Origin: Escherichia phage V18
Reading direction: 5' to 3' (one strand)
Length of the DNA stretch: 64,000 bases
Sequence record: NC_041937.1
Shown: piece by piece, positions 22,232-34,824 of the stretch
Numbering within the stretch: the first letter of the stretch is position 1
Layout: the number at the start of each line of letters is the position of its first letter
Program-made: the position numbers and the translations under genes
Notes under the pieces: model-generated
Databases searched by the model: none
What the model was told of the DNA's origin: nothing
What the model saw: only the letters and a program-made list of their open reading frames with translations

Positions 22232-22471
22232 ATGTACAAGTCATTTTCAATTTACTCAAGACAGGGGAAACACTACACAGAGATCCTGATCACTCAGAAA
22301 AAATCTGTAGAAGGTGAGTGGGAATATCACCATAAAATGTTGCGTCCAGATTGGGTTTTTGATAGACTTATTGCCATGATCCCTCTTGGAGAAGTATATC
22401 CTCTGACAGGCGGGAGGGATGTTTGGGATTTAATTGCTTACATAGATTCATTTAAGGAGCCCAGTGTATGA
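22232..22471 (+). CDS. hypothetical protein
   Basis: RBS AAGGGGGAG before ATG 22232. Confidence 0.35.
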   Translation: MYKSFSIYSRQGKHYTEILITQKKSVEGEWEYHHKMLRPDWVFDRLIAMIPLGEVYPLTGGRDVWDLIAYIDSFKEPSV

Positions 22472-22869
22472 AGATTGAGATCACCAAAGAAGGCAAGAAA
22501 GTGTCTGGCGACTATGCAACAGTAATTCGGGATTTAATGTTTGAAGCCACCAAGATCGGTACATCTAAAGTTGGTCAAACTGTTAGTGTGCAAAGTAATA
22601 TCGCCACAGGAGAGAAGGTATTCATTGTGGTCAAAGGGCAGGATCCTGTGGAAGGAACAGTGGGCCGAGGAGGTTACCTGTGCATTTCTGAAGAGCCTCG
22701 TATGCTAGTGGCTGACTCCGCTACTATAGGTGGGAAACGTGTGTGCGAGGCGGATGAGGTAATGATTATCCAGCCTGTTGACCCAGATGATCCAGCAACT
22801 TGGGTGGTAGGAAATGAAATCTTCTCTTTAGAAGAGTTATCCTTCCCAGCCCCGCGCTCTGTTCAGTAA
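22468..22869 (+). CDS. hypothetical protein
   Basis: 133 aa, ATGA coupling, N-terminus MKIEITKEG. Confidence 0.4.
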   Translation: MKIEITKEGKKVSGDYATVIRDLMFEATKIGTSKVGQTVSVQSNIATGEKVFIVVKGQDPVEGTVGRGGYLCISEEPRMLVADSATIGGKRVCEADEVMIIQPVDPDDPATWVVGNEIFSLEELSFPAPRSVQ

Positions 22870-22908
22870 TAATTTATCTTACCAGGGACGGTAGAAGCAG
22901 GAGGTAGC

Positions 22909-23142
22909 ATGAAAGTTAAATTTCTTACAGATTTAGGGTACCCTTCCTTGGTTGACTGTGTTGGTAAAATTGTGGAAGCAAAACGGCTATCTGCAAACGA
23001 GAATGTTGTCCTGGTTAAAGGGAAGGATTTACTAGCTGCAGGTGCAGAGTCTGGCAGGATCTCTCCTGATTATATGTATTACCTATCTTTAAGTAATCTG
23101 CCAGAGCGAGGCGGTAAAGGCCTTGAAGTTGTGGAGGAGTGA
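22909..23142 (+). CDS. small acidic protein, MK[VI]K...VEE paralog family
   Basis: 77 aa; MKVKFL start, LLAAGAESG core, ends EVVEE. Confidence 0.45.
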   Translation: MKVKFLTDLGYPSLVDCVGKIVEAKRLSANENVVLVKGKDLLAAGAESGRISPDYMYYLSLSNLPERGGKGLEVVEE

Positions 23143-23344
23143 CAGGTATGCTTCTGATTAACTGGGAAGACCTCTATGGGCCTTTATGGGAAAAGAGCAT
23201 GTATTTAAAATGGTGCGTTAATTTAGGGAGGCCTTCCAGTGTTTCAAGCCATGTTTATTGAGATGCTATCTGGGGTATTGTTACTGGTAGCCATCTTAGG
23301 TGGTGCAGTTCTGATGTATAACTATCTTGAAAAAGGAGACAGCA

Positions 23345-23530
23345 ATGGTAAAAAATAAATCTTTAGAGCAGGCTGAAAACCTTCTCCACGAGCTGGTAAA
23401 GGAGTGGAAAGTTGAATACTCAGATTTTAATGCACGAGAGGGTGAAGATTATTGGCCTACGGAGCGCTCAGAGGGCGAATGGTATCAAGATTTTATAGAG
23501 TGGTTATATCAGACGTGCGATGAGGGGTGA
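23345..23530 (+). CDS. hypothetical protein
   Basis: RBS AAAGGAGA before ATG 23345. Confidence 0.35.
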   Translation: MVKNKSLEQAENLLHELVKEWKVEYSDFNAREGEDYWPTERSEGEWYQDFIEWLYQTCDEG

Positions 23531-23991
23531 CGATGTTTGTTAAATATGTAAAAACGTGCCTCAACAGTCTTGGCAGAGAGCATTGGTACACCTTGCTTGA
23601 AAAAGGGGAAATTTTAACAAAATCTGGAAAGATAACTTTTATACATAGTAAAGGTAAAGACCCGTCACGACTTGTTATAGATGATTACGTTACAGGTGTG
23701 ACGTTCGAGGTCTCTGTGGAGAGGTTAATACGCAGAGCTGGCGGCCCTTATGACCGAAGAGAGTATGTTTTCGATTCCGTTACAGAGATGGGGGAGCATC
23801 CGTCTTTAATGTTCAGGATGGTAATCAGAGATATGAGGTCATCTATAGATAGGATTGTAAAGGACATTAAGGAACCTTTTAGAGTAAAAGTTAAGAAGTT
23901 TTTCGATTCTAAGATTAACATACTCGCCGTTGCACTAGGTGTAGTTCAACTTCTGTTAATTTTGCACTATTTTGAACTACTATTTAAGTAG
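23527..23991 (+). CDS. hypothetical protein with C-terminal hydrophobic anchor
   Basis: 154 aa; C-terminal ILAVALGVVQLLLILHYF. Confidence 0.4.
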   Translation: MTMFVKYVKTCLNSLGREHWYTLLEKGEILTKSGKITFIHSKGKDPSRLVIDDYVTGVTFEVSVERLIRRAGGPYDRREYVFDSVTEMGEHPSLMFRMVIRDMRSSIDRIVKDIKEPFRVKVKKFFDSKINILAVALGVVQLLLILHYFELLFK

Positions 23992-24053
23992 TAGTTGAGA
24001 TATGGCACAAAGGATGTGCCATAGTGAAATAAACTAAGAAAGAGGTAGAGAGA

Positions 24054-24401
24054 ATGCCAAAGATTAAAACGTTATTACTGTGGGTAACTGTTTTAGCTTT
24101 TATAGGGTACTGGACTTGGGAAACTGAATTAAAAGATATAGGATATACCAGTCTTGAGAGCAAGGCGTGCATTGGCATAACCGATGCGTTCAGGCAAAAT
24201 GCTATGGATCACGAATGTGTTGATGCAGATATAGATGAGAAACTGTCTAAGGACAAAGATTTTTACCATGGGCATGCTTTACTTGATAGTGGTGACACTG
24301 TAGAGTTCTGGTCGTGGTTTCGTGAAGATGGAACAATAAAAACAGCAGTAAAGATCTCTAACAAAGAGTTAATGCTGTTGCAGCAAAAGGAGGCTCAATG
24401 A
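24054..24401 (+). CDS. hypothetical protein with N-terminal transmembrane segment
   Basis: 115 aa; LLLWVTVLAFIGYW. Confidence 0.4.
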   Translation: MPKIKTLLLWVTVLAFIGYWTWETELKDIGYTSLESKACIGITDAFRQNAMDHECVDADIDEKLSKDKDFYHGHALLDSGDTVEFWSWFREDGTIKTAVKISNKELMLLQQKEAQ

Positions 24402-24685
24402 TCTGGATATCCTATGCTGATGGCACCATGCTGTATACTGCAGGTACCAGATATGAAGTTCAGGAGAACGATAAAAAATTTATCGTAAAAACATTTGACA
24501 AGGACGACAACCTTTTGCTAGAATTGACTTACAAGGTTGGAGAGGTATCCAATATCCAATTGGATTGTGGTCATAAAGATAACCCACTCAAAAAACCTGG
24601 AATAGGCAAGGCTTCAGAAGAACGTTTGTCTCGTATTGCAGAAAGCGTTTCTACACAAAAATCTAAGAAGGGGACTAGAAAATGA
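24398..24685 (+). CDS. hypothetical protein
   Basis: 95 aa, ATGA coupling. Confidence 0.35.
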   Translation: MIWISYADGTMLYTAGTRYEVQENDKKFIVKTFDKDDNLLLELTYKVGEVSNIQLDCGHKDNPLKKPGIGKASEERLSRIAESVSTQKSKKGTRK

Positions 24686-24750
24686 AAAACTTACGTTTTA
24701 ACACTGGCGCAATGGAAGAAGCAATATTCTAAACCAGGCGGGAGGGTTTT

Positions 24751-24936
24751 ATGAAGCACTATTGCCTGTCTGGTAGAATGGGTACAGATTGTGATTGGGT
24801 TTTCTTAAAACTTGTCAGCATTCGAGAGTTCATCCCAGAGGAAGAGCAAGAAAGCGAGCTGATGTCATGGATCAACCATTACGGTAACACTTTTCGGCAT
24901 GTTAAGGTAGAAGAGTTGCCAAGCGAGGCTGATTGA
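24751..24936 (+). CDS. hypothetical protein
   Basis: 61 aa ORF. Confidence 0.3.
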   Translation: MKHYCLSGRMGTDCDWVFLKLVSIREFIPEEEQESELMSWINHYGNTFRHVKVEELPSEAD

Positions 24937-25031
24937 CTATGATTGCATCAATATTAACGTTTATGGGTGGCGTGGCATTCGGATTCATTGTTTGCCTGTT
25001 TATAGTGATTATGTCTATGCGAGGCTGAATT

Positions 25032-25403
25032 ATGAAACTTTTTGAGTGGTTTAAAAAGTTTAAATATAAAGCTGTAGCCATCGTGCCGTGGTCAATTCAG
25101 TGGGTTGATGAAGGTGGTCTACCAATACCTGGTGACAAAGATACTGGGTACTGGATTATGATGGAGAACGGGTTTGGAAAGCGAAAGTATACGTGCACAA
25201 ACTCTACTCGATCTGCCACTAACTGGTCTAAATTCTACTGGGGAGCCAACGAGTGGGGAAGATACGCCACCAAATCAATGGCACTTATTGGTATAGCAGA
25301 GTACATTGCAGCCAGAGATAGGGTTGGAGACACTTATTACTATACTGCGGACGATATTCGTAACAGTGTTTACGTCCCACAACCACCTGATGGAGACCGT
25401 TGA
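25032..25403 (+). CDS. hypothetical protein
   Basis: 123 aa ORF. Confidence 0.4.
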   Translation: MKLFEWFKKFKYKAVAIVPWSIQWVDEGGLPIPGDKDTGYWIMMENGFGKRKYTCTNSTRSATNWSKFYWGANEWGRYATKSMALIGIAEYIAARDRVGDTYYYTADDIRNSVYVPQPPDGDR

Positions 25404-25627
25404 TGAAAGTTAAAGTTTTAGATTCAAGCTTCTATATTGGTCAGGAGCCCTTAGTGGGGAAAGTGTTTACTGCTGTCCCTAACGAAGATTACCCCGACCT
25501 TTTAAAAATAAAAGGGGCAGATCTTATTGCCGCTGGTGCATCTCATGAATGCTTTGACAGTCAGTGGACCTACAACTTTGCCCTAGGTGAGGATGTAGAG
25601 ATAGTGGAGGACGATCATGAAGGTTAA
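25400..25627 (+). CDS. small acidic protein, MK[VI]K...VEE paralog family
   Basis: MMKVKVLDSSFYIGQ...GADLIAAGAS...EIVEDDHEG. Confidence 0.45.
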   Translation: MMKVKVLDSSFYIGQEPLVGKVFTAVPNEDYPDLLKIKGADLIAAGASHECFDSQWTYNFALGEDVEIVEDDHEG

Positions 25628-25871
25628 AATTCTTGATTCTAACGTCTACTTGGGACAATCCTTCCTGAAGGGAAAGGTAGTTCCTGCGGTATACTTTGAA
25701 GGGTTGCCGTGGGATGATCCTGTGCGGCAACATCACAGTTATGTAGGCCACAACGTAGTGTTTATCTTAGGATCAGACCTGATCGCTGCTGGTGCACCGG
25801 AATATTATTTCGGGGAAGAATCCTATTATGCCTTTGGGGCAGGGTCAGATGCAGATATTGTAGAGCTGTGA
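25617..25871 (+). CDS. small acidic protein, MK[VI]K...VEE paralog family
   Basis: MKVKILDSNVYLGQ...GSDLIAAGAP...DIVEL; tandem to previous. Confidence 0.45.
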   Translation: MKVKILDSNVYLGQSFLKGKVVPAVYFEGLPWDDPVRQHHSYVGHNVVFILGSDLIAAGAPEYYFGEESYYAFGAGSDADIVEL

Positions 25872-25883
25872 TGGGTAACCGTT

Positions 25884-26279
25884 GTGAAAAATAAACTGTT
25901 CAAAGTTACAATGAAAATTCGCGGAGCTTGGAGCGTAAAGCAAGGGCGTATCCCAGAATTTGAGAAAGACTTCTACGTAGTCTCCACCTCGGAGGAGGCT
26001 GCATGCTGGCAGGCTGGCTATGCCTATGCAAGAACCTGGTACGAAGGATACCAGACTGGGGGCTATGACGGAGAAATTATCAGCAAGGGTGTGGAAGAAA
26101 TTAATGTGTTGACAAGTAAAAATTTTGTTATAGTGCATCCAGATTCCAGAGTGAAGCATTACTGGAATGCCAGAACAAAAACTTGGACACCGTTTGCAGA
26201 TTCTGCTACACCACTTTTAAACCAAAAAGCTCTTGACTCTGCCCCGAGCTACGGGGTTGTTGAAGAAAAGCTAGACTGA
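25884..26279 (+). CDS. hypothetical protein (paralog of 28089-28484)
   Basis: 131 aa; shared block HP-S-xxYW-xxxx-WTP. Confidence 0.45.
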   Translation: MKNKLFKVTMKIRGAWSVKQGRIPEFEKDFYVVSTSEEAACWQAGYAYARTWYEGYQTGGYDGEIISKGVEEINVLTSKNFVIVHPDSRVKHYWNARTKTWTPFADSATPLLNQKALDSAPSYGVVEEKLD

Positions 26280-26296
26280 AACAGTGAGGTGCCACT

Positions 26297-26587
26297 ATGA
26301 TGGATTTAGTTCTGAATATTGATAACGCAGGGGAGTTTAAAGACGATGGTGTAACAAGCATTGACCAACCATGCTCTGCCAAGATTGACTCAAAATGGGC
26401 CTACAAGTTTGACGGAGAGATCTTCGCAAATGATGAGAAGGTTGTAGATGCTGCAGCCATTTTGAACGCTCTAGGGTACGACCCTGTGAATTCTTTGATC
26501 AAGGATCCTGTTGAGTTTGCAGAGTATGTTCGAAAAATGGCAGATCTTGCTGTAGATATTTTAGATACTATCGATAATAAGCTGTAA
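26297..26587 (+). CDS. hypothetical acidic protein
   Basis: 96 aa ORF. Confidence 0.4.
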   Translation: MMDLVLNIDNAGEFKDDGVTSIDQPCSAKIDSKWAYKFDGEIFANDEKVVDAAAILNALGYDPVNSLIKDPVEFAEYVRKMADLAVDILDTIDNKL

Positions 26588-26593
26588 AAACTG

Positions 26594-26622
26594 TTGACAC
26601 AACGCTTCAGATTTAGTATCAT
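26594..26622 (+). promoter_or_regulatory. sigma70-like promoter (TTGACA-17-TATCAT)
   Basis: -35 at 26594-26599, -10 at 26617-26622, immediately upstream of the HPF-like gene. Confidence 0.6.
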
Positions 26623-26671
26623 TGTTTTCAAAGAGAGATAGTTATTCCCTCTTCCTTAAAAGGAACACGTT

Positions 26672-26992
26672 ATGCAAATTGAAATCACTGGCAACAATGT
26701 AGAAATCACAGAAGGTATGGTATCTTTTATTTCCCGCAAAATGTCCAAGCTGGAGCGTTTACATCCCTCTGTCAACTATGCACGTGTGAGTGTAAAAGTT
26801 GAAAATGATCACCAGGAAGTTATGGCGTTCATTTTTGACAATTCTGGAAAAGAAGTTATTGCCAAAGCTAAAGGCAGTGATGCTTACGAGGCAACTGACC
26901 GTATGGTAGATGTTGCAGCACGTCAGCTGGCTAAATGCGGTGGAAAGAAAGGTAAGGGGAAAGGCAAAGTAAAGATTGACTTTGGAGAATGA
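26672..26992 (+). CDS. hpf: ribosome hibernation promoting factor / RaiA-like protein
   Basis: 106 aa; MQIEITGNNVEITEG...KLERL nearly identical to the bacterial HPF N-terminus MQLNITGNNVEITEA...KLE; similarity continues through VKVEN...ARQLAK. Confidence 0.8.
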   Translation: MQIEITGNNVEITEGMVSFISRKMSKLERLHPSVNYARVSVKVENDHQEVMAFIFDNSGKEVIAKAKGSDAYEATDRMVDVAARQLAKCGGKKGKGKGKVKIDFGE

Positions 26993-27129
26993 GGTGCTAC
27001 AATGGGTGTGATTAAGAAATTAGTCACAAATGTAGAGATTGCATGCTTTGAAATTATGTTTGCAATCGCAGTTGTAGTTAATGTGTTAGGTTACGGCTAT
27101 TAATATCAAATAATTGAGGAGACCTCTAA

Positions 27130-27399
27130 ATGAAAATTAAATTATTCAAAACTGAGCTGGCAGACAAAAACTGTGGACTGGTTGAAGGCATGATTGTTGA
27201 AGCACAACCAGTGGACTATATGAAGGTGGTTCGTGATGCCCTAGGTGAAGGTTTTGATCTGATGGAGCCAGCTCTGCGAGAAGATGTTATCGAGATGGCT
27301 AAAAAGCACACACCTGAAGGTTTGGTGGTGTTTGTTGCACCGGGTAACGGAGAAGAGTTGATTGTAACTCCGGATGTGTATGAGATTGTAGAGGAATAA
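27130..27399 (+). CDS. small acidic protein, MK[VI]K...VEE paralog family
   Basis: MKIKLFKTE start, ends YEIVEE. Confidence 0.45.
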   Translation: MKIKLFKTELADKNCGLVEGMIVEAQPVDYMKVVRDALGEGFDLMEPALREDVIEMAKKHTPEGLVVFVAPGNGEELIVTPDVYEIVEE

Positions 27400-27490
27400 T
27401 CCTGCTTGGATTAGCATACTTCCTCGATAAGGAAGATTTGTAATTATTTGTGGGAAAGGAATCCCAATCTCTTACCAGAGGTGATACTAT

Positions 27491-27670
27491 ATGATTGTTT
27501 ATTTTAAAACTTCAGGTGGATACCCTGATTCTCAAAGCTTGATCGGAAAAACGTGCACAGCATACTCACCTCTTGATGAGGAGGTAAGCGATATTCTACG
27601 AAATATGTATCGGATTGACCCCCAAGAAGCTTTGATCAAAACCTTGTATTTGTCAAGGGCTCAGATATGA
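27491..27670 (+). CDS. hypothetical small protein (59 aa)
   Basis: RBS GAGGTGA before ATG 27491; below the ORF-track size cutoff. Confidence 0.3.
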   Translation: MIVYFKTSGGYPDSQSLIGKTCTAYSPLDEEVSDILRNMYRIDPQEALIKTLYLSRAQI

Positions 27671-27757
27671 AGTCTTTGGGAGCATTCCCTGAAGCAGATG
27701 ATGATGCCGTTTATTCGTTCATGACTCCTTTTGAAGCTATGGTTGTTGGGTGATAAT

Positions 27758-27949
27758 ATGAAAGTACGCTTTATTGGTGAAACAATTCCTGTGCATCTCC
27801 GGTCTCCTGAGGATTCTGCAGATCTTGCATCTCAAAAGGCGAGAGGTTATGATAAGAAAGTAACCTCAACCGATGTAGTGCTTGAGGCTACTAGCTACCT
27901 GACCCTGCTGCATTCTTTAATCATTATGGGTACTATTTCAGCAACCTGA
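27758..27949 (+). CDS. hypothetical protein
   Basis: ATG 27758 (MKVRFIGE) inside the 27731 ORF frame. Confidence 0.3.
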   Translation: MKVRFIGETIPVHLRSPEDSADLASQKARGYDKKVTSTDVVLEATSYLTLLHSLIIMGTISAT

Positions 27950-28088
27950 TGAATATCGGTGAGCTTGTATTTATTAGTGGTGGAGAAATTGTTAGCAAGC
28001 TCGGTGGCGATCCAGATGTCTTTCATGAAACCTGTCCTTTTGCATTTGTGGTAGGTTCAGATGTGGAAGTTATTGAGGAGGTGCGGTA

Positions 28089-28484
28089 ATGGTAAGCCTA
28101 TACCGTGTCGAGTATAGCTCGGATACTGTATACAACGTAAGAAGCAAAGATCGCAGCGACAGAGTGCAAGAAATGTATGTTCTTGCCGACAGTCCGTTAT
28201 CTGCAGCGTTCAAGGCAGGGGCTCTTGCATCTCGTTGGAAATTTGAAGGTGGATCTTTCTATGAAGAAACCCTTGAAGATTCTGTTGTTATTTCTTCTGT
28301 AGAGGTTTCAGATGACTACGAAGGGAAAAAGTTCGTAATGCGGCACCCACACAGCAATATTGCGTACTACTGGGACGTTCTGAACAACGAGTGGACCCCA
28401 GATCTTCAGAAGGCTACTGTGCTAACACCGTTTTTGGCAGATAAGTTCCCACCAGAAGGTAATTTATCTGCACTGTTTCAGTAA
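28089..28484 (+). CDS. hypothetical protein (paralog of 25884-26279)
   Basis: 131 aa; FVMRHPHSNIAYYWDVLNNEWTP versus FVIVHPDSRVKHYWNARTKTWTP. Confidence 0.45.
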   Translation: MVSLYRVEYSSDTVYNVRSKDRSDRVQEMYVLADSPLSAAFKAGALASRWKFEGGSFYEETLEDSVVISSVEVSDDYEGKKFVMRHPHSNIAYYWDVLNNEWTPDLQKATVLTPFLADKFPPEGNLSALFQ

Positions 28485-28502
28485 TTTTCTTGCACACAGG
28501 TG

Positions 28503-28531
28503 TTGACAACGCCAACCCTGTGTGAAATAAT
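28503..28531 (+). promoter_or_regulatory. sigma70-like promoter (TTGACA-17-AATAAT)
   Basis: -35 at 28503-28508. Confidence 0.55.
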
Positions 28532-28563
28532 ACCTTCATCTTAACAAGACAGGAGACCGATTG

Positions 28564-28821
28564 ATGAAGATTAAATTGAAAAACCTTGAAACGGCAGAGA
28601 TTCAGGACGGTGTTGATTTCCGTTCTAAAGATGGTGACATCTTAGAGGTAAATATTCCAACCTACGATCTGATCAAAGGTTTTGGCAACGTCCCCGAGGA
28701 AGGTATCGCAGACGTTCTTCTAATGTTAATCGTTAGTGGGACAGTGTTCTTGGGTGAAGGTGAGAACGCTATTGCAATCCCAAGCCATTTTTATGAAGTA
28801 GTTGACGAAGAGGTGCTGTAA
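28564..28821 (+). CDS. small acidic protein, MK[VI]K...VEE paralog family
   Basis: MKIKLKNLE start, ends YEVVDEEVL. Confidence 0.45.
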   Translation: MKIKLKNLETAEIQDGVDFRSKDGDILEVNIPTYDLIKGFGNVPEEGIADVLLMLIVSGTVFLGEGENAIAIPSHFYEVVDEEVL

Positions 28822-29172
28822 ATGAAAGTAGAAATTACTGGTTTTGATGTGAATGCGGTTCCGGAAGATATTTTAGCTAAACTTCCGGAAGGTTTTGGTA
28901 ACGGTGTTGTGGTGGATGCTGTTCCTCCTACCAAAGACATTCTGCTGCAGTATGGTGTAGCAGAGGAAGATGTCGATAAAGTTCTTACAATGATGGCAAT
29001 CGATCGTGTTGTCGTTGTTAAAGGTCTCGATAATTTTGAGAGTGATCCCCTGATTATTCGTGGAGATGACTACAAAATCATCGATAATGAAGGCCAAGAG
29101 TTCTATGAACCTTGTGCAGAAGATATTCTTAACTTATTACTGGAAGCAGGCACCGAAGAGGAGGACGAATAA
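28822..29172 (+). CDS. hypothetical acidic protein
   Basis: 116 aa; MKVEITGFD start, very acidic C-terminus. Confidence 0.45.
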   Translation: MKVEITGFDVNAVPEDILAKLPEGFGNGVVVDAVPPTKDILLQYGVAEEDVDKVLTMMAIDRVVVVKGLDNFESDPLIIRGDDYKIIDNEGQEFYEPCAEDILNLLLEAGTEEEDE

Positions 29173-29501
29173 TGAAGATTGACCCGTTACTGAAGGCTCG
29201 TGCAGAAAAAGCGTACACCATTAAGCTGACCACCCTGGTTCCTGCTTGTCATCCGGATGTAGGTTGGCCCGAAGGTCTGGTAGAGGGGACTGTAACAGCC
29301 GCATACCTTCCTAACATCAAATACCTTATGGAAATCTTAGAGATGGATGAGGAAACTGCAGAACAGTTCCAGTTGGATATGAAACAAAGTGGGACTTTGG
29401 TTATTCACGGGTGGTATAATACTAAAGATGCAGAAGACCCTCTGGTAACTTCTAATCTGGCATATGAAATCTTAGGGCCTTTGAACCTGGGGGAAGACTA
29501 A
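29172..29501 (+). CDS. hypothetical protein
   Basis: 109 aa, start/stop coupled. Confidence 0.4.
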   Translation: MKIDPLLKARAEKAYTIKLTTLVPACHPDVGWPEGLVEGTVTAAYLPNIKYLMEILEMDEETAEQFQLDMKQSGTLVIHGWYNTKDAEDPLVTSNLAYEILGPLNLGED

Positions 29502-29788
29502 TGAAAGATCTGGTTAAGATTAAGATTAAAGATACCAATGGAGAACTCAGCCATTTTGGAATTAATGATGGTGACGAGCTGATCGCACACTTGCCTACCA
29601 AGGAAGTTGTAAGCAAAGCGGTTGCCGGAGAAGAAGCTGCAATGCAGGCTGCAGGTGTGGATGAAAACTATGTAGCCATGTGCATGTGCCGAGATCAGGT
29701 TGTTCTGTATAAAGCGTATCGACCAAACGGAGCCACGGAGTGGCTTGTATTCCGACCTGAAGGATATGAAATCTTAGAGGCACTATGA
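29501..29788 (+). CDS. hypothetical protein
   Basis: 95 aa, start/stop coupled. Confidence 0.4.
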   Translation: MKDLVKIKIKDTNGELSHFGINDGDELIAHLPTKEVVSKAVAGEEAAMQAAGVDENYVAMCMCRDQVVLYKAYRPNGATEWLVFRPEGYEILEAL

Positions 29789-29877
29789 TAAATCTTGCCA
29801 AGGTTGCAATGGTCCTGCTAATTATTTGCTGGTCAGTAACCTTAACACTGTGTCTTGTATTTCAGTAAGGTGCTTAT

Positions 29878-30075
29878 ATGAACATCCTGATGTGGGTTGT
29901 AGCAGTGGCGTTTGTTGCATGTTTTTGCTGCTGGGTTGCGGTGAGGATTTCTGTAGCTACCTTCGGAAGTTGGGGTTCTCAGAGTGGGATATTAATATCC
30001 TTTCTTTTCGCAATGAAACAATCTCAGCCGCCCTGCTCTGTAAGAAATTCAAGTGGGAACCTTGTGAGGTCATGA
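29878..30075 (+). CDS. small membrane protein
   Basis: RBS TAAGGTG before ATG; hydrophobic WVVAVAFVACFCCWVAV. Confidence 0.35.
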   Translation: MNILMWVVAVAFVACFCCWVAVRISVATFGSWGSQSGILISFLFAMKQSQPPCSVRNSSGNLVRS

Positions 30076-31271: not shown

Positions 31272-31655
31272 ATGTCTACAAAGGCGGCTAAATACTCTTA
31301 CATGCCATCAACCTCTGCAGAGGTAGACTTTAGTTTCGATGTGTTTCCACTGTTTGAGGTGGTTCTGGCATACCCAACAATACTATCTACTCCTGAATCA
31401 CTTGTGCCTGTTAAGTTGCAGAACGCTATGCATTCTATGCACTACAACAATAAATGTAGGCACAGATGGTGTCAAGACGAGGAAAAAGATTTGGATAGTT
31501 TGAGGGATTTTGACAGTCACCTTTTGACACCTTTCAGCTACTCCAACCTTGATAAGCCTCATGGGTATAGCAAAATATCAAATTTAAGACACCTAGGACG
31601 CTCTGTGGCGTCCTTTTCTTTATCTGGTGCACGATTGCATACCTTGGACAGATAA
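31272..31655 (+). CDS. hypothetical protein
   Basis: RBS GAGGTGG before ATG 31272. Confidence 0.4.
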   Translation: MSTKAAKYSYMPSTSAEVDFSFDVFPLFEVVLAYPTILSTPESLVPVKLQNAMHSMHYNNKCRHRWCQDEEKDLDSLRDFDSHLLTPFSYSNLDKPHGYSKISNLRHLGRSVASFSLSGARLHTLDR

Positions 31656-32250: not shown

Positions 32251-32466
32251 ATGAAGATAGAAATATTTGGTGGAGCTGACAACACTCGTGGCCTGATTTA
32301 CCTTGAATTTGATGAATCATACCTGCCAGAGGTGTTAAATATAGACTCTGTTGCTGAGGCTTTGGGAGTAAACCCTAAAGAACTCCACTCTTGTGCTGAG
32401 ATCGATGGTTGGGAAGAGACCATGAACATTGATTTCAGTGAAGTGGAGGATGAACCGCTAGACTGA
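32251..32466 (+). CDS. hypothetical acidic protein
   Basis: 71 aa; RBS AGAGGAG; MKIEIFGG start; last plus-arm gene. Confidence 0.4.
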   Translation: MKIEIFGGADNTRGLIYLEFDESYLPEVLNIDSVAEALGVNPKELHSCAEIDGWEETMNIDFSEVEDEPLD

Positions 32467-32593
32467 CGCACAATTAGCTGCCCGGCTAAAGTGCTGGAAG
32501 CACCTATAACACATCTTTCAACTAAATTTCCTACCACCACAATCACTTACCTCCCGCACATGACTGTTTGCTTGTTTAGTGAGCAGTCATGCC

Positions 32594-32621
32594 TTGACAT
32601 TCTTGCCTATCCTGATAAAAT
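32594..32621 (+). promoter_or_regulatory. sigma70-like promoter (TTGACA-16-TAAAAT) firing into ORF-free DNA
   Basis: -35 at 32594-32599, -10 at 32616-32621; no credible ORF downstream. Confidence 0.5.
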
Positions 32622-33160
32622 TAAGTTCTTCTCTTTTCTTTTACCGAGTAATTCGGGTTTTCTGTTCTCTTCGGTTTGAAGGGGTATGGAGATACACCTG
32701 AGTGAACAGGGTGAACAACCGAACCATTAGCTATGGCATTAGCATGGCGAAGCGGACGGGTGACGAAAGAGGGGCCGGAGGACACCAGTCACTGCCATAT
32801 GATATATGGGTGATAACCTGAAGAGTCTGAATAAGTGTTTAAGTACCAGTCAGAGGAAAAGGTGAATGGTAGCCGAAGGGGGGAGGGGGGTTTCTTGTAT
32901 CTTTAATTTGTATATTATGTATACACTTGTAAACCAATCTAATCTGAATCTGTTTACCACACAAAGCGGATAGAGACAAATATTGCCTATTAAACTTGAA
33001 TTATTTATAGAAAATACCACAACACCCCTTAAGTCTTTGATTTACACACAAATCCTACAGATATTCAACCTCCATATTTAACATACTTGTAACATATTCC
33101 ATACTCTACCTGTCTGATCAATTTCCCAACTACATTCTCATATTTTCCCTGTCTGTACTA

Positions 33161-33356
33161 CCCCTGCCCCGCCGGGAGTCCCGTCATATCTGGCTTTCCA
33201 GCAAATATCACACCCACAAATATCATTGCCTGAAGAGGGTTTCATCCCATAATACCTGCCTTACCTGAAGAGCGCTTCATACACCACGTAAATTTTTTAA
33301 TTGACCTCCCCCTGCCCCTCCGGAGAGGTTGGCTTTTCCCACACAGACCTGAAGAG
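33161..33356. repeat. cluster of short direct repeats
   Basis: cccctgcccc-g/t-ccgg-g-ag at 33161 and 33308; cctgaagag at 33229, 33264, 33348. Confidence 0.5.
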
Positions 33357-33976
33357 TCAGCCAGAAATATCTGAATAGGCCCGATCTGCCCAGTCAGGAG
33401 CCAGTAGCGACTGGAGTGCTGCCAGGCGGACGGAATGGGAATACTTCTCATTCTTATAACAATTCTCAAATATCGAGGCAGTGAGAGAAATTAATAGGCC
33501 AGGCCGTTCACACAGTGGCACAACATTTGCAACCTATCCTGTGGGGATGAATGAGAATACCTATCATTGTGAGAACTATTATCATTACGGGCAATTTAAC
33601 ATAATACCCATTATGCGCACCACTGGCGATACATACAGGGATTGATACCATGAGTTACAGTTTACACACATAACAATTATATTTCTTACTATTTGTGTGG
33701 GATATAGTTAGCAGCCAATAGATTAGATATTGACCTGTAGACTTCCAACCGTCTGGACGTCTAAACGCCCACACACCAAGGGTTATACATACATCGCTGA
33801 ATGTAAACAGGGCCGCAAAAATGCTACCATACCAGTTTGTAAATTTTTCATGCAGCACTTGACAAAGAGGAGAAAAACTTGTCTGACACAATGTCACACA
33901 ATATGACACTTTACACTGGACACACTAGGCACAAAAAAAAAAAACTGCAGTGACTAGGTCACCCCTTCAGGTGTTT

Positions 33977-34171
33977 CTATGACATAATATAAAAGCAGGG
34001 CAACTATTACAAATCTAAAGTTGCCTTGCTTGTTATGTCATGATTAACTAAATACAAGGCAACTATGATCTGATTAATAGTTTGCAGACAAACTATCACG
34101 GGGGTGATGGTTACTGCTTTTATATTATGTCGCGACTCCGTCGCGCCATGCCATTCGTTTGCATAGTTGCC
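33977..34171. repeat. palindrome-flanked iteron cluster
   Basis: 19-bp inverted arms at 33980-33998 and 34114-34132; GGCAACTAT copies at 33999, 34048, 34087 (variant) and inverted at 34017, 34163. Confidence 0.55.
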
Positions 34172-34824
34172 TTATTGTTACAGATAAAATAATTGTATTG
34201 TTAATTATTTCTTATCTTTCTATTAGTCATCTAATGATTCCAGTTAGTATAGTAACGTATAGTAAACATTAGACGACTAAATATTTCTCTGTTTATGATA
34301 ACTCACCGTAATAATTTCGGACTGTTTACGAAAAATGTTGACACCCTGGCTGATTTATGTTATGCAATTTAAACGAATAATTATTTTATGCAGGTATTGA
34401 CTATTCCGTTATTCTATGGTTGGAATAAATACTTAGCAGGCTATAGAATGGTGAGCGTACGTAAATTCTGAGATCTGTCGGCTATAGTTATACCCGATTT
34501 TTCACGTAGAACACGCTTTCGATGCTGTGTAAGTGTATGACTTATAAAGATTTTTAGTTGTTGACAAGATATTGGAGATGTGCATCAGGTTAAAATTTGT
34601 GCAATAGCGGCATTACGTGCACTTTTGGGAGAGAAAACGGGTAAAAATGGACTTGCTACCACACAATGAAAAATTATGCAATAGCTATTTTACATGTATG
34701 TTTGTACAGTGCGGGCAATTGATGGCTCGTCAATTATTCCACTTGCCAGGTAGGGCCGTTTATGGTAGGGGGAAGAGCAGACAAAAAGAAAGGGGCCTAA
34801 GCCCTTGATAATTCAGTTAAAAAA

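Follow-up and report, generated by a model that had tools for sequence, protein, structure and literature searches.

Ten small genes between positions 22909 and 29788 of the window (the whole 64,000-nt stretch of Escherichia phage V18 DNA analyzed here) make up two five-member sequence families with a common predicted SH3-like fold, and it is in this form that the tandem expansion of small proteins proposed in an earlier note on this DNA is supported. Family 1 consists of A, B, C, K and E, and Family 2 of D, F, G, H and I. We infer that the ten encode fast-evolving, protein-binding accessory factors, and that K, E and the neighboring gene X2 form a host-specific counter-defence or host-adaptation unit, a reading to which we assign a probability of about 0.45.

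The window derives from an rV5-like Vequintavirus that shares ~97% identity with the phages pangalan, inoa and Gotham, and the region probably represents the accessory end of the + strand arm of such a genome. All of its genes lie on the + strand, joined by ATGA, TAATG or TAAATG junctions or, in the case of B and C, by an 11-nt overlap, as expected from the single orientation and coupled genes described previously. The open reading frames listed at that time were all found in place. Transcription of the + strand arm seems to depend on the RNA polymerase of the host; 19 of 19 sigma70-type sites in the whole window are on the coding strand, and near-consensus promoter-like sites occur at 24495, at 26594-26622 and at 28503-28531. 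The second of these precedes a homologue of the ribosome hibernation factor (S30AE/HPF, 26672..26992, PF02482 4e-15), which sits between two gene blocks and belongs to neither family, and the third precedes F. Judged from promoter-like sequences alone, placement of the genes in an early region is plausible.

Family 1 is of the PHROG 5009 type and is without any Pfam or NCBIfam model. Its pattern comprises, in order, MKVKxL, GY, xGKVxxA, a variable loop, hVxIxGxDLIxxGA, YxF and ExEVVE. Gene A (22909..23142, 77 aa) runs from MKVKF through GKDLLAAGA to EVVEE, and matches phrog_5009 at 8e-36. B (25403..25627, 74 aa) has the domain in minimal form, while in C (25617..25871, 84 aa, phrog_5009 5e-32) the loop from strand 2 to strand 3 is longer; the core motifs are GADLIAAGA and GSDLIAAGA, respectively. 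These three are the members in which a GxDL[IL]AAGA-like core had already been noticed. They match phrog_5009 over their full length (on the order of 1e-32 to 1e-38), and blastp gives 1e-13 for B and C and 1e-5 for A and B, a likeness that exceeds chance. K (27491..27753, 87 aa if intact) and E (27758..28089, 110 aa if intact) are both frameshifted here and were delineated by alignment to Gotham, frame checks and HMMs. Against an HMM from which their orthologs were left out, they score 3e-5 and 1.6e-4, respectively; K additionally matches phrog_5009 at 1.5e-4, and E matches a broad 70-sequence profile built without it at 9e-7 (hhalign 96%). The PHROG collection, in which K and E have their own entries (phrog_13920 and phrog_13661) apart from phrog_5009, splits what the present profiles join as one five-member family, and phrog_5009 itself, for all its full-length match to A, B and C, carries no name, fold or function.

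In K, a 1-nt deletion at 27630/27631 breaks the frame, and a second 1-nt deletion at 27894/27895 splits E; both were located by alignment to Gotham and by frame checking. The stretch spanning the two sites is intact in all 117 other genomes, and the deletions are seen only in the window genome. A short open reading frame near 27945 (27949-28089), which had been counted as a separate member, is instead the C-terminal fragment of the 110-aa E. K was absent from the earlier list and is the fifth Family 1 member.

The spread of Family 1 extends well outside the Vequintavirus genus. Eighty-seven clusters at 50% identity match its profile and keep its invariant positions. In lambdoid E. coli prophages, single copies occupy the interval from the Q antiterminator to the lysis genes, which is a classic slot for accessory genes, and the closest relative of one 75-aa prophage protein (P0031) is A. 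Five proteins of other phages (P0097, P0098, P0139, P0142 and P0170) contain two or three tandem copies of the domain, which is consistent with joint work of adjacent paralogs.

Family 2 comprises D (27130..27399, 89 aa, from MKIKL to YEIVEE) and the F-G-H-I block, which opens with F (28564..28821, 85 aa) and continues with G (28822..29172, 116 aa, with an additional acidic C-terminal tail and a charge of -21), H (29172..29501, 109 aa) and I (29501..29788, 95 aa). Its members are linked by profile-profile scores alone, pairwise BLAST within the family giving no significant match. The hhalign probabilities are 85% for F-G (83 columns), 85% for G-H, 64% for D-I, 34% for H-I, 26% for G-I and 22% for D-F, compared with a maximum of 13% in 55 control comparisons against 11 unrelated small proteins. 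The F-G, G-H and D-I links are colinear and about full-length. Support for Family 2 membership is moderate.

The single family originally described thus stands for A, B and C, which are related, whereas D (27130) and F (28564), which fall with G, H and I, show no detectable membership in it. The N-terminal signature that prompted the grouping is present (MKVKF in A, MKVKV in B, MKVKI in C, and MKIKL in both D and F), as are C-termini of the described kind (EVVEE, EIVEDD, DIVEL, EIVEE, EVVDEE and EVIEE). In its broader form, MK[VI][KRE][FLIVM], the N-terminus occurs in 7 of the 20 genes in the region and in 1 of 108 outside it (Fisher p = 6e-6). It may be that all ten genes constitute one divergent superfamily descended from a single ancestral barrel gene, a possibility with a fair share of the probability but one that we consider less likely than not to be correct. 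Family 2 does have the same first and last strands as Family 1, with helices inserted between strands 2 and 3 but without the GxDLIAAGA helix. However, alignments of Family 1 with Family 2 in hhalign cover only the first 7-30 residues, at probabilities of 21% or lower, Family 1 profiles find every Family 2 gene only at E > 2 in hmmsearch, and K and E fail to bridge the two groups. Small barrels of such topology arise often, and the common termini are possibly a structural necessity.

AlphaFold models of B and D (pLDDT ~92) are each a five-stranded SH3-like barrel, in that five antiparallel strands make up a barrel that structurally matches SH3, KOW or PsaE domains. The alignment supplied for the D model was a mixture of all five Family 2 groups, and the fold of F through I is therefore assumed from it, not separately predicted. 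In the models, strand 1 corresponds to MK[VI]K and strand 5 to [IV]VEE, and these two strands are inferred to pair, closing the barrel. The likeness to SH3 domains, the Spt5/NusG KOW domain, PsaE and the retroviral integrase C-terminal domain is one of fold class only, with identities of 4-27%. Compared with known SH3-like small barrels, Family 1 is distinguished by a short, conserved helix that follows strand 3, and Family 2 by an insert of three helices separating strands 2 and 3.

Several more specific assignments were considered and rejected. None of the ten proteins has any Pfam match at E values up to 1, the model of the KOW (NusG/Spt5/L24) family, PF00467, included. In the B and D models the first strand starts at residue 2, and the N-terminal helix of the Sm/LSm (Hfq-like) type is absent; nor is there a Pfam LSM match. 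Certain T4 proteins (GoF, MotB.1, Frd.2) are similar in being divergent, non-essential small SH3/LSm-like beta-barrel paralogs of a large virulent E. coli myovirus that are encoded in early or accessory regions, were recognized via structure prediction and have no established function (PMC12152347). They differ in their size (119-141 aa), their extra C-terminal domains, their scattered genomic locations and their lack of GxDLIAAGA, and sequence and profile comparisons detect no similarity; hmmsearch gives less than 5 bits, and hhalign probabilities are at most 0.9%.

Tandem and segmental duplication enlarged the two families, whose members evolve fast. A module consisting of a Family 1 gene followed by a 131-aa gene is present twice, as C-X1 and as E-X2. 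X1 (25884..26279) lies directly after C, and X2 (28089..28484) is joined to E by a TAATG junction; the two 131-aa proteins match each other by blastp at 1e-9, and both match phrog_7379. The X2 family is found only in Vequintavirus. Some phages carry a B/C hybrid gene that recombined at GADLIAAGA (P0014), and a contig of an unrelated phage has two adjacent copies (L005). In a distant 125-kb relative (L010), every copy is retained, the order of the ten genes and X2 being preserved at 29-74% identity; neighboring genes there (p93, p98 and p101) are 81-86% identical.

Evidence for function comes from Bas54, a sister phage for which Tn-seq data on K-12 and one clinical host, CFE311, are available in a preprint supplement (10.1101/2025.11.20.689424). 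Genes were mapped between Bas54 and the window by identical gene sizes and order and matching TA-site counts; the two Bas54 sheets of the supplement are duplicates of one analysis. On K-12, the Bas54 counterparts of the ten genes, and of X2, are classed as either non-essential or "intermediate". On CFE311, insertions in K (0152), E (0151) and X2 (0150) have log2FC values of -7.16, -6.17 and -6.77, with zero reads and an adjusted p of 0, X1 (0157) has a log2FC of -2.14, and no effect is seen for A, B, C, F, G, H and I (10.1101/2025.11.20.689424). Seven of the ten genes have no phenotype in either tested host, and the CFE311 phenotype concerns two of the five Family 1 genes.

A useful comparison is bas54_0140, a validated anti-DS-28 gene that likewise lies in the accessory arm (the ortholog is at 31272-31655 of the window), is dispensable on K-12 and is depleted on CFE311 in the same way as K, E and X2 (10.1101/2025.11.20.689424). 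It differs in having an unrelated sequence and in being paired with a cloned defence system, unlike K, E and X2. Only two CFE311 systems, DS-28 and Gao_Tmn, were cloned, the only knockouts tried against them being 0063 and 0140 (10.1101/2025.11.20.689424). What makes K, E and X2 necessary on CFE311 could be something other than a defence system.

In the model we favor, the ten small five-stranded barrels would act as protein-binding modules. Beside the face where SH3 domains usually bind their ligands lies the loop that joins strands 2 and 3, and since the paralogs differ mainly in this loop, each would bind a different partner, the loop serving as the specificity determinant for a distinct host or phage protein. 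The proteins would be accessory factors, needed on some hosts only. Because K, E and X2 are needed on the clinical strain only, they are candidate host-specific counter-defence factors; K, E and the translationally coupled X2 would be one unit needed on the clinical E. coli isolate, most likely to neutralize a strain-specific defence. The anti-defence or host-takeover arsenal suggested in the earlier note is indirectly supported, for some of the genes, by the loss of insertions in K and E (with X2) on CFE311, where A, B, C, F, G, H and I are unaffected. A more detailed version, in which K and E form a heteromeric adaptor that works with X2 to disable a uropathogenic E. coli immunity system, and in which the ten barrels are a diversified binder repertoire, is doubtful. 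There, the strand 2-3 loop would tune each paralog to a separate host defence or factor, and the two- and three-copy fusion proteins of other phages would be the single-chain form of the device.

Other explanations would place the phenotype or the function elsewhere. As K and E are upstream of X2, their depletion could be a polar effect on it, and it may be that X2 (and weakly X1) alone is functional on CFE311, the SH3-like paralogs being near-neutral duplicates with fast turnover. The three genes are consecutive, with a TAATG junction between E and X2; the paralog X1 is also depleted, while B and C upstream of it are not; the window phage has frameshifts in K and E and an intact X2; and seven of the paralogs lack a phenotype. 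[quoted passage not shown] The retention of ten genes in order in a relative at 29-74% identity, the intact K and E sequence across the deletion sites in 117 of 117 other genomes and the conservation of Family 1 over 87 clusters with invariant positions also run counter to near-neutrality, and we regard this explanation as quite improbable.

A role as modulators of gene expression is unlikely, if slightly less so. As small KOW/LSm-like barrels, the proteins would in this case target the ribosome, RNA polymerase, Rho/NusG partners or RNA in place of a counter-defence role, and together with the phage ribosome hibernation factor they could form a translation and transcription takeover block. However, the proteins have neither KOW nor LSM Pfam matches and no sequence relation to GoF, MotB.1 or Frd.2, the strong acidity of most of them (pI 4.0-4.8; A has 5.4) disfavors direct RNA binding, and a general takeover role would not be expected to matter on one clinical strain only. 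The same acidity could suggest that they mimic DNA and thereby block restriction or other defence proteins that bind DNA. Net charges are -6 to -21 in most members, as the acidic character originally ascribed to the family would have it, A being an exception at -1. Vequintavirinae are unusually sensitive to restriction-modification systems according to the BASEL study (PMC8594841), so they would profit from such a function. Neither a DNA-mimic fold nor that of a known inhibitor was found, and searches with PADLOC, whose models cover defence proteins and not anti-defence proteins, gave no match at E values up to 1. We consider DNA mimicry very improbable.

Phages of the rV5-like type are common and infect a broad range of hosts, which is of interest as they are therapy candidates, and most of their genes have no known function. 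Some ten of their "hypothetical proteins" can now be placed in two defined families for which a fold is predicted and a signature can be recognized. If the frameshifts in K and E are real, the window phage is predicted to fail on hosts such as CFE311. K, E and X2 offer a concrete three-gene target in the search for a new phage-host conflict.

The tandem expansion of small acidic proteins proposed in the earlier note takes the form of two families of five genes each, as delimited by profile and profile-profile comparison. Family 1 comprises the genes designated A, B, C, K and E, beginning at positions 22909, 25403, 25617, 27491 and 27758, and Family 2 comprises D, F, G, H and I, beginning at 27130, 28564, 28822, 29172 and 29501. 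All of the ORFs and motifs named in the note are present in the window, and so is the coupling of start and stop codons: an ATGA precedes B, B and C overlap by 11 nt, F and G are joined by TAAATG, and TAATG occurs at the G-H and H-I junctions and between E and X2, one of two genes for 131-aa proteins in the region. Of the 20 genes in the region, 7 begin with MK[VI][KRE][hydrophobic], against 1 of the 108 in the rest of the window (p = 6e-6). The note assigned A, B, C, D and F to a single family. This is borne out for the first three (blastp B-C 1e-13, A-B 1e-5, A-C 0.01), which match phrog_5009 end to end (1e-32 to 1e-38), and fails for D and F: Family-1 profiles never score better than E = 2 against any Family-2 protein, and profile-profile comparison of the families aligns only the first 7-30 residues (probability at most 21%), so that the likeness of D, F, G, H and I to Family 1 is limited to the N-terminal context.

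A short ORF near 27945, previously counted as a gene of its own, is really the second ORF of E, which is split by a single-nucleotide deletion. Alignment to phage Gotham places this deletion at 27894/27895, where it divides the 110-aa E into two ORFs, and a second 1-nt deletion at 27630/27631, within a T run, where it shortens K from 87 to 59 aa; the truncated K has exactly the sequence of V18_00141 from Escherichia phage V18. The full proteins are recovered by reading the parts 3' of the deletions in the shifted frame. None of 117 other Vequintavirus genomes has either deletion, the extra base being present at both sites, and the best matches among them differ from the window by exactly two gaps and one mismatch. 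The deletions are thus either sequencing errors or very recent inactivations, the latter amounting to a natural double knockout.

At the position of the GxDLIAAGA motif, restored K has VFVKGSDMKSLGA and restored E has LVFISGGEIVSKLGG. Searched against a database of 465 ORFs, a profile built without K or E orthologs recovers both K (3e-5) and E (1.6e-4), and a broader profile of ~70 sequences, again lacking E orthologs, matches E at 9e-7 with an hhalign probability of 96%. Direct blastp links also appear with the orthologs of a divergent relative (A-K 9e-4, B-E 4e-4). By these profile, hhalign and blastp links, Family 1 has five members.

With orthologs from L010, a 125-kb metagenomic relative, included in the profiles, hhalign connects F to G (85% over 83 columns), G to H (85%) and D to I (64% over 85 columns), with lower values for H-I (34%), G-I (26%) and D-F (22%). 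Every one of these alignments is colinear, and 55 control comparisons with 11 unrelated small proteins of the region reach at most 13% and usually stay below 1%. It can be said with moderate confidence that D, F, G, H and I form one family. A bridge to Family 1 via K, E or the broader profile was attempted and failed to connect the two.

AlphaFold models of B and D are both five-stranded SH3-like barrels, in which MK[VI]K forms predicted strand 1 and [IV]VEE predicted strand 5. Because the first and last strands adjoin in this fold, the shared start and end probably mark barrel closure, as a signature of structure. In C, K and E a variable insert falls, between strands 2 and 3, at the same modelled spot where Family 2 has its helical insert. 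Just upstream of A lies gene J (22468-22869; 133 aa, phrog_5748), which is acidic, starts with MKIEIT and is probably beta-rich; against the profiles of both families it is not a member, its top score being 6.7%, against I. The last gene on the + strand (32251-32466, 71 aa) has an MKIEIF start and an acidic EVEDEPLD tail, and is matched by neither family profile.

Beyond Vequintavirus, Family 1 is detectable only by profiles and structure comparison. Searches of 50,697 cultured-phage records by tblastn, with B and the family consensus as queries, return Vequintavirus only, and scans of all members against Pfam, NCBIfam and PADLOC match zero models. A PDB sequence search with both family profiles and the family of X2 likewise yields nothing significant. 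When 1.84 billion representative proteins are searched with a Family-1 HMM, 87 clusters match at E <=0.001; most are 63-80 aa long, and their consensus is MKVKLLNDGGYxGLxxVIGKVVEA...ILGSELIAAGA...F...YxFxLGxExEVVEE. Two or three tandem domains are present in several proteins (P0097, P0098, P0139, P0142 and P0170), and a Cys-rich tail in a few. In one (P0120) the domain is fused to DUF3310, which was dropped as a functional clue since DUF3310 is itself uncharacterised. Structural matches in BFVD are to uncharacterised proteins only, in many phages including RB49 and Merlin. Lambdoid E. coli prophages encode one copy of an A-like protein of 75 aa (P0031), annotated as hypothetical, among the small genes between the Q antiterminator and the holin; the protein occurs in 13 of 5,426 complete E. 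coli genomes, and genes like X2 and Family-2 genes are both absent around it. A scan of IMG/VR returns 28 lambdoid-prophage loci and one Vequintavirus contig. In an unrelated 8.6-kb phage contig with an SU10-type capsid and an SPP1-type portal (L005), two adjacent, overlapping Family-1 genes (3990-4518) lie beside an HTH regulator, and the domain has therefore been tandem-duplicated more than once.

Duplication within the region has extended past the barrels themselves. X1 (25884-26279, after C) and X2 (28089-28484, after E) are paralogs (blastp 1e-9) that both match phrog_7379, so a pair made up of a Family-1 gene followed by an X gene has been duplicated, giving C-X1 and E-X2. No X homologs were found outside Vequintavirus. 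Some phages encode a B/C hybrid (P0014) joined at the GADLIAAGA motif, as expected of unequal recombination between tandem copies. In L010, the order of the ten barrel genes, X2 and a ribosome hibernation factor gene is kept and X1 is absent. Identities there are 74, 66, 44, 58 and 52% for A, B, C, K and E, 57, 51, 29, 46 and 47% for D, F, G, H and I, and 40% for X2, as compared with 81-86% for three neighbour genes. This combination of kept order and low identity indicates that the barrel copies are fast-evolving yet individually retained.

Over the whole of 22400-30000, the surrounding sequence shares 97% identity with more than 110 rV5-like Escherichia phages (genus Vequintavirus), among them pangalan, inoa, Gotham and the BASEL phage CarlMeissner. 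Eighteen MG0656xx records titled 'Campylobacter phage', with Campylobacter jejuni as host, are also ~97% identical to the rV5-like coliphages here, and their host labels look doubtful. Genes run on the + strand to ~32.5 kb and on the - strand from ~34.8 kb, and the barrel genes lie at the far end of the + arm within a series of small hypothetical genes, downstream of genes for ribonucleotide reductase, thymidylate synthase and PhoH-like, ClpP-like and methyltransferase proteins. This arm is plastic: relative to Gotham it has lost 814 bp at 23180/23181, 144 bp at 24705/24706 and ~207 bp at 25222/25223, losses that together take out one gene for a 174-aa 'putative glycosidase' and another for a small membrane protein, shorten a gene of 64 aa and join two genes into ORF 25032-25403. 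At the convergence of the arms, ~32470-34820 (~2.3 kb) has no convincing genes and no tRNA or Rfam matches, and cumulative GC skew peaks there; the equivalent ~2 kb of the related phage Bas54 is reported to tolerate zero transposon insertions (10.1101/2025.11.20.689424).

The ribosome hibernation factor homolog (S30AE/HPF; 26672-26992, Pfam 4e-15) sits between two blocks of barrel genes and is preceded by a near-consensus promoter. A scan of the whole window for TTGACA-N16-18-TATAAT with at least 11 of 12 positions matching finds 19 sites, none of them on the non-coding strand; the 9 + strand sites are all below 33 kb and the 10 - strand sites all above 35 kb. This implies that both arms hold many real host-type promoters. 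Three sites fall inside the barrel region, at 24495, at 26594 (before the hibernation factor gene and D) and at 28503 (before F-G-H-I). Such sigma70-type sites point to host RNA polymerase and suggest, from sequence, that the region would be transcribed early. No transcriptome for the rV5-like group was found in the literature, and Rfam and tRNA scans give zero matches in or near the region.

Genetic data come from transposon-insertion sequencing of Bas54, a Vequintavirus (preprint 10.1101/2025.11.20.689424). Its genome was renumbered by the authors, and its genes were mapped to those of the window by size, order (compared with Bas48) and TA-site counts, the counts for the Bas48 orthologs agreeing with the Bas54 table. 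On this basis 0146-0149 are I, H, G and F; 0150, 0151, 0152 and 0153 are X2, E, K and D; 0155 is the hibernation factor; and 0157, 0158, 0159 and 0166 are X1, C, B and A. On K-12, E, K and D are 'intermediate' and the other mapped genes 'non-essential'. When K-12 BW25113 is compared with the uropathogenic isolate CFE311, K, E and X2 retain no reads on the latter at any TA site (log2FC -7.16, -6.17 and -6.77; adjusted p 0). X1 is reduced (-2.14, adjusted p 0) and D shows a non-significant change (-2.78); there is no change for A, B, C, F, G, H and I, and the hibernation factor gene is non-essential on both hosts. In Extended Data Table 8 the CFE303 sheet (S6) duplicates the CFE311 sheet (S7), with the same TRANSIT run, command line and values, so one clinical host is assessable. 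The authors made deletions of 0063 and 0140 only, matched to the predicted system DS-28, and K, E and X2 are unmentioned in their text. The ortholog of bas54_0140, the gene experimentally needed against predicted DS-28, is at 31272-31655; it agrees with the Bas48 ortholog at each of its first 96 residues, beyond which the C-terminus differs, the ORF running to ~127 aa.

In the best-supported reading, the ten barrels are accessory, host-specific factors, at least one clinical strain requires K-E-X2 as a unit, and the barrels would work by protein binding, with specificity set by the variable loop between strands 2 and 3. The CFE311 pattern could also arise if only X2 mattered and insertions in K and E were polar on it. 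This is a main rival; however, insertions in B and C at the barrel locus leave X1 undepressed, and the preprint authors argue against polar effects being widespread (10.1101/2025.11.20.689424). Another main rival concerns function: the barrels might modulate gene expression, as KOW- or LSm-like folds binding the ribosome, RNA polymerase, Rho/NusG partners or RNA. The proteins' acidity weakens that possibility, as do the strain-specific phenotype and the lack of any sequence relation to T4 GoF, MotB.1 or Frd.2. A third rival, a role in DNA mimicry, has little support.

K-E-X2 could serve in counter-defence. The multi-domain fusions in other phages suggest that adjacent copies cooperate. Small, fast-evolving accessory proteins are a well-known class in large virulent phages, and the genes themselves were already deposited as hypothetical proteins and grouped in unnamed PHROGs. 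No earlier statement was found in the literature of the two-family definition, the fold, the membership of K and E, the C-X1/E-X2 duplication, the wider distribution or the link to the CFE311 phenotype. If the deletions in K and E are natural, V18 would be a double knockout in a unit found to be conditionally essential in the sister phage Bas54.
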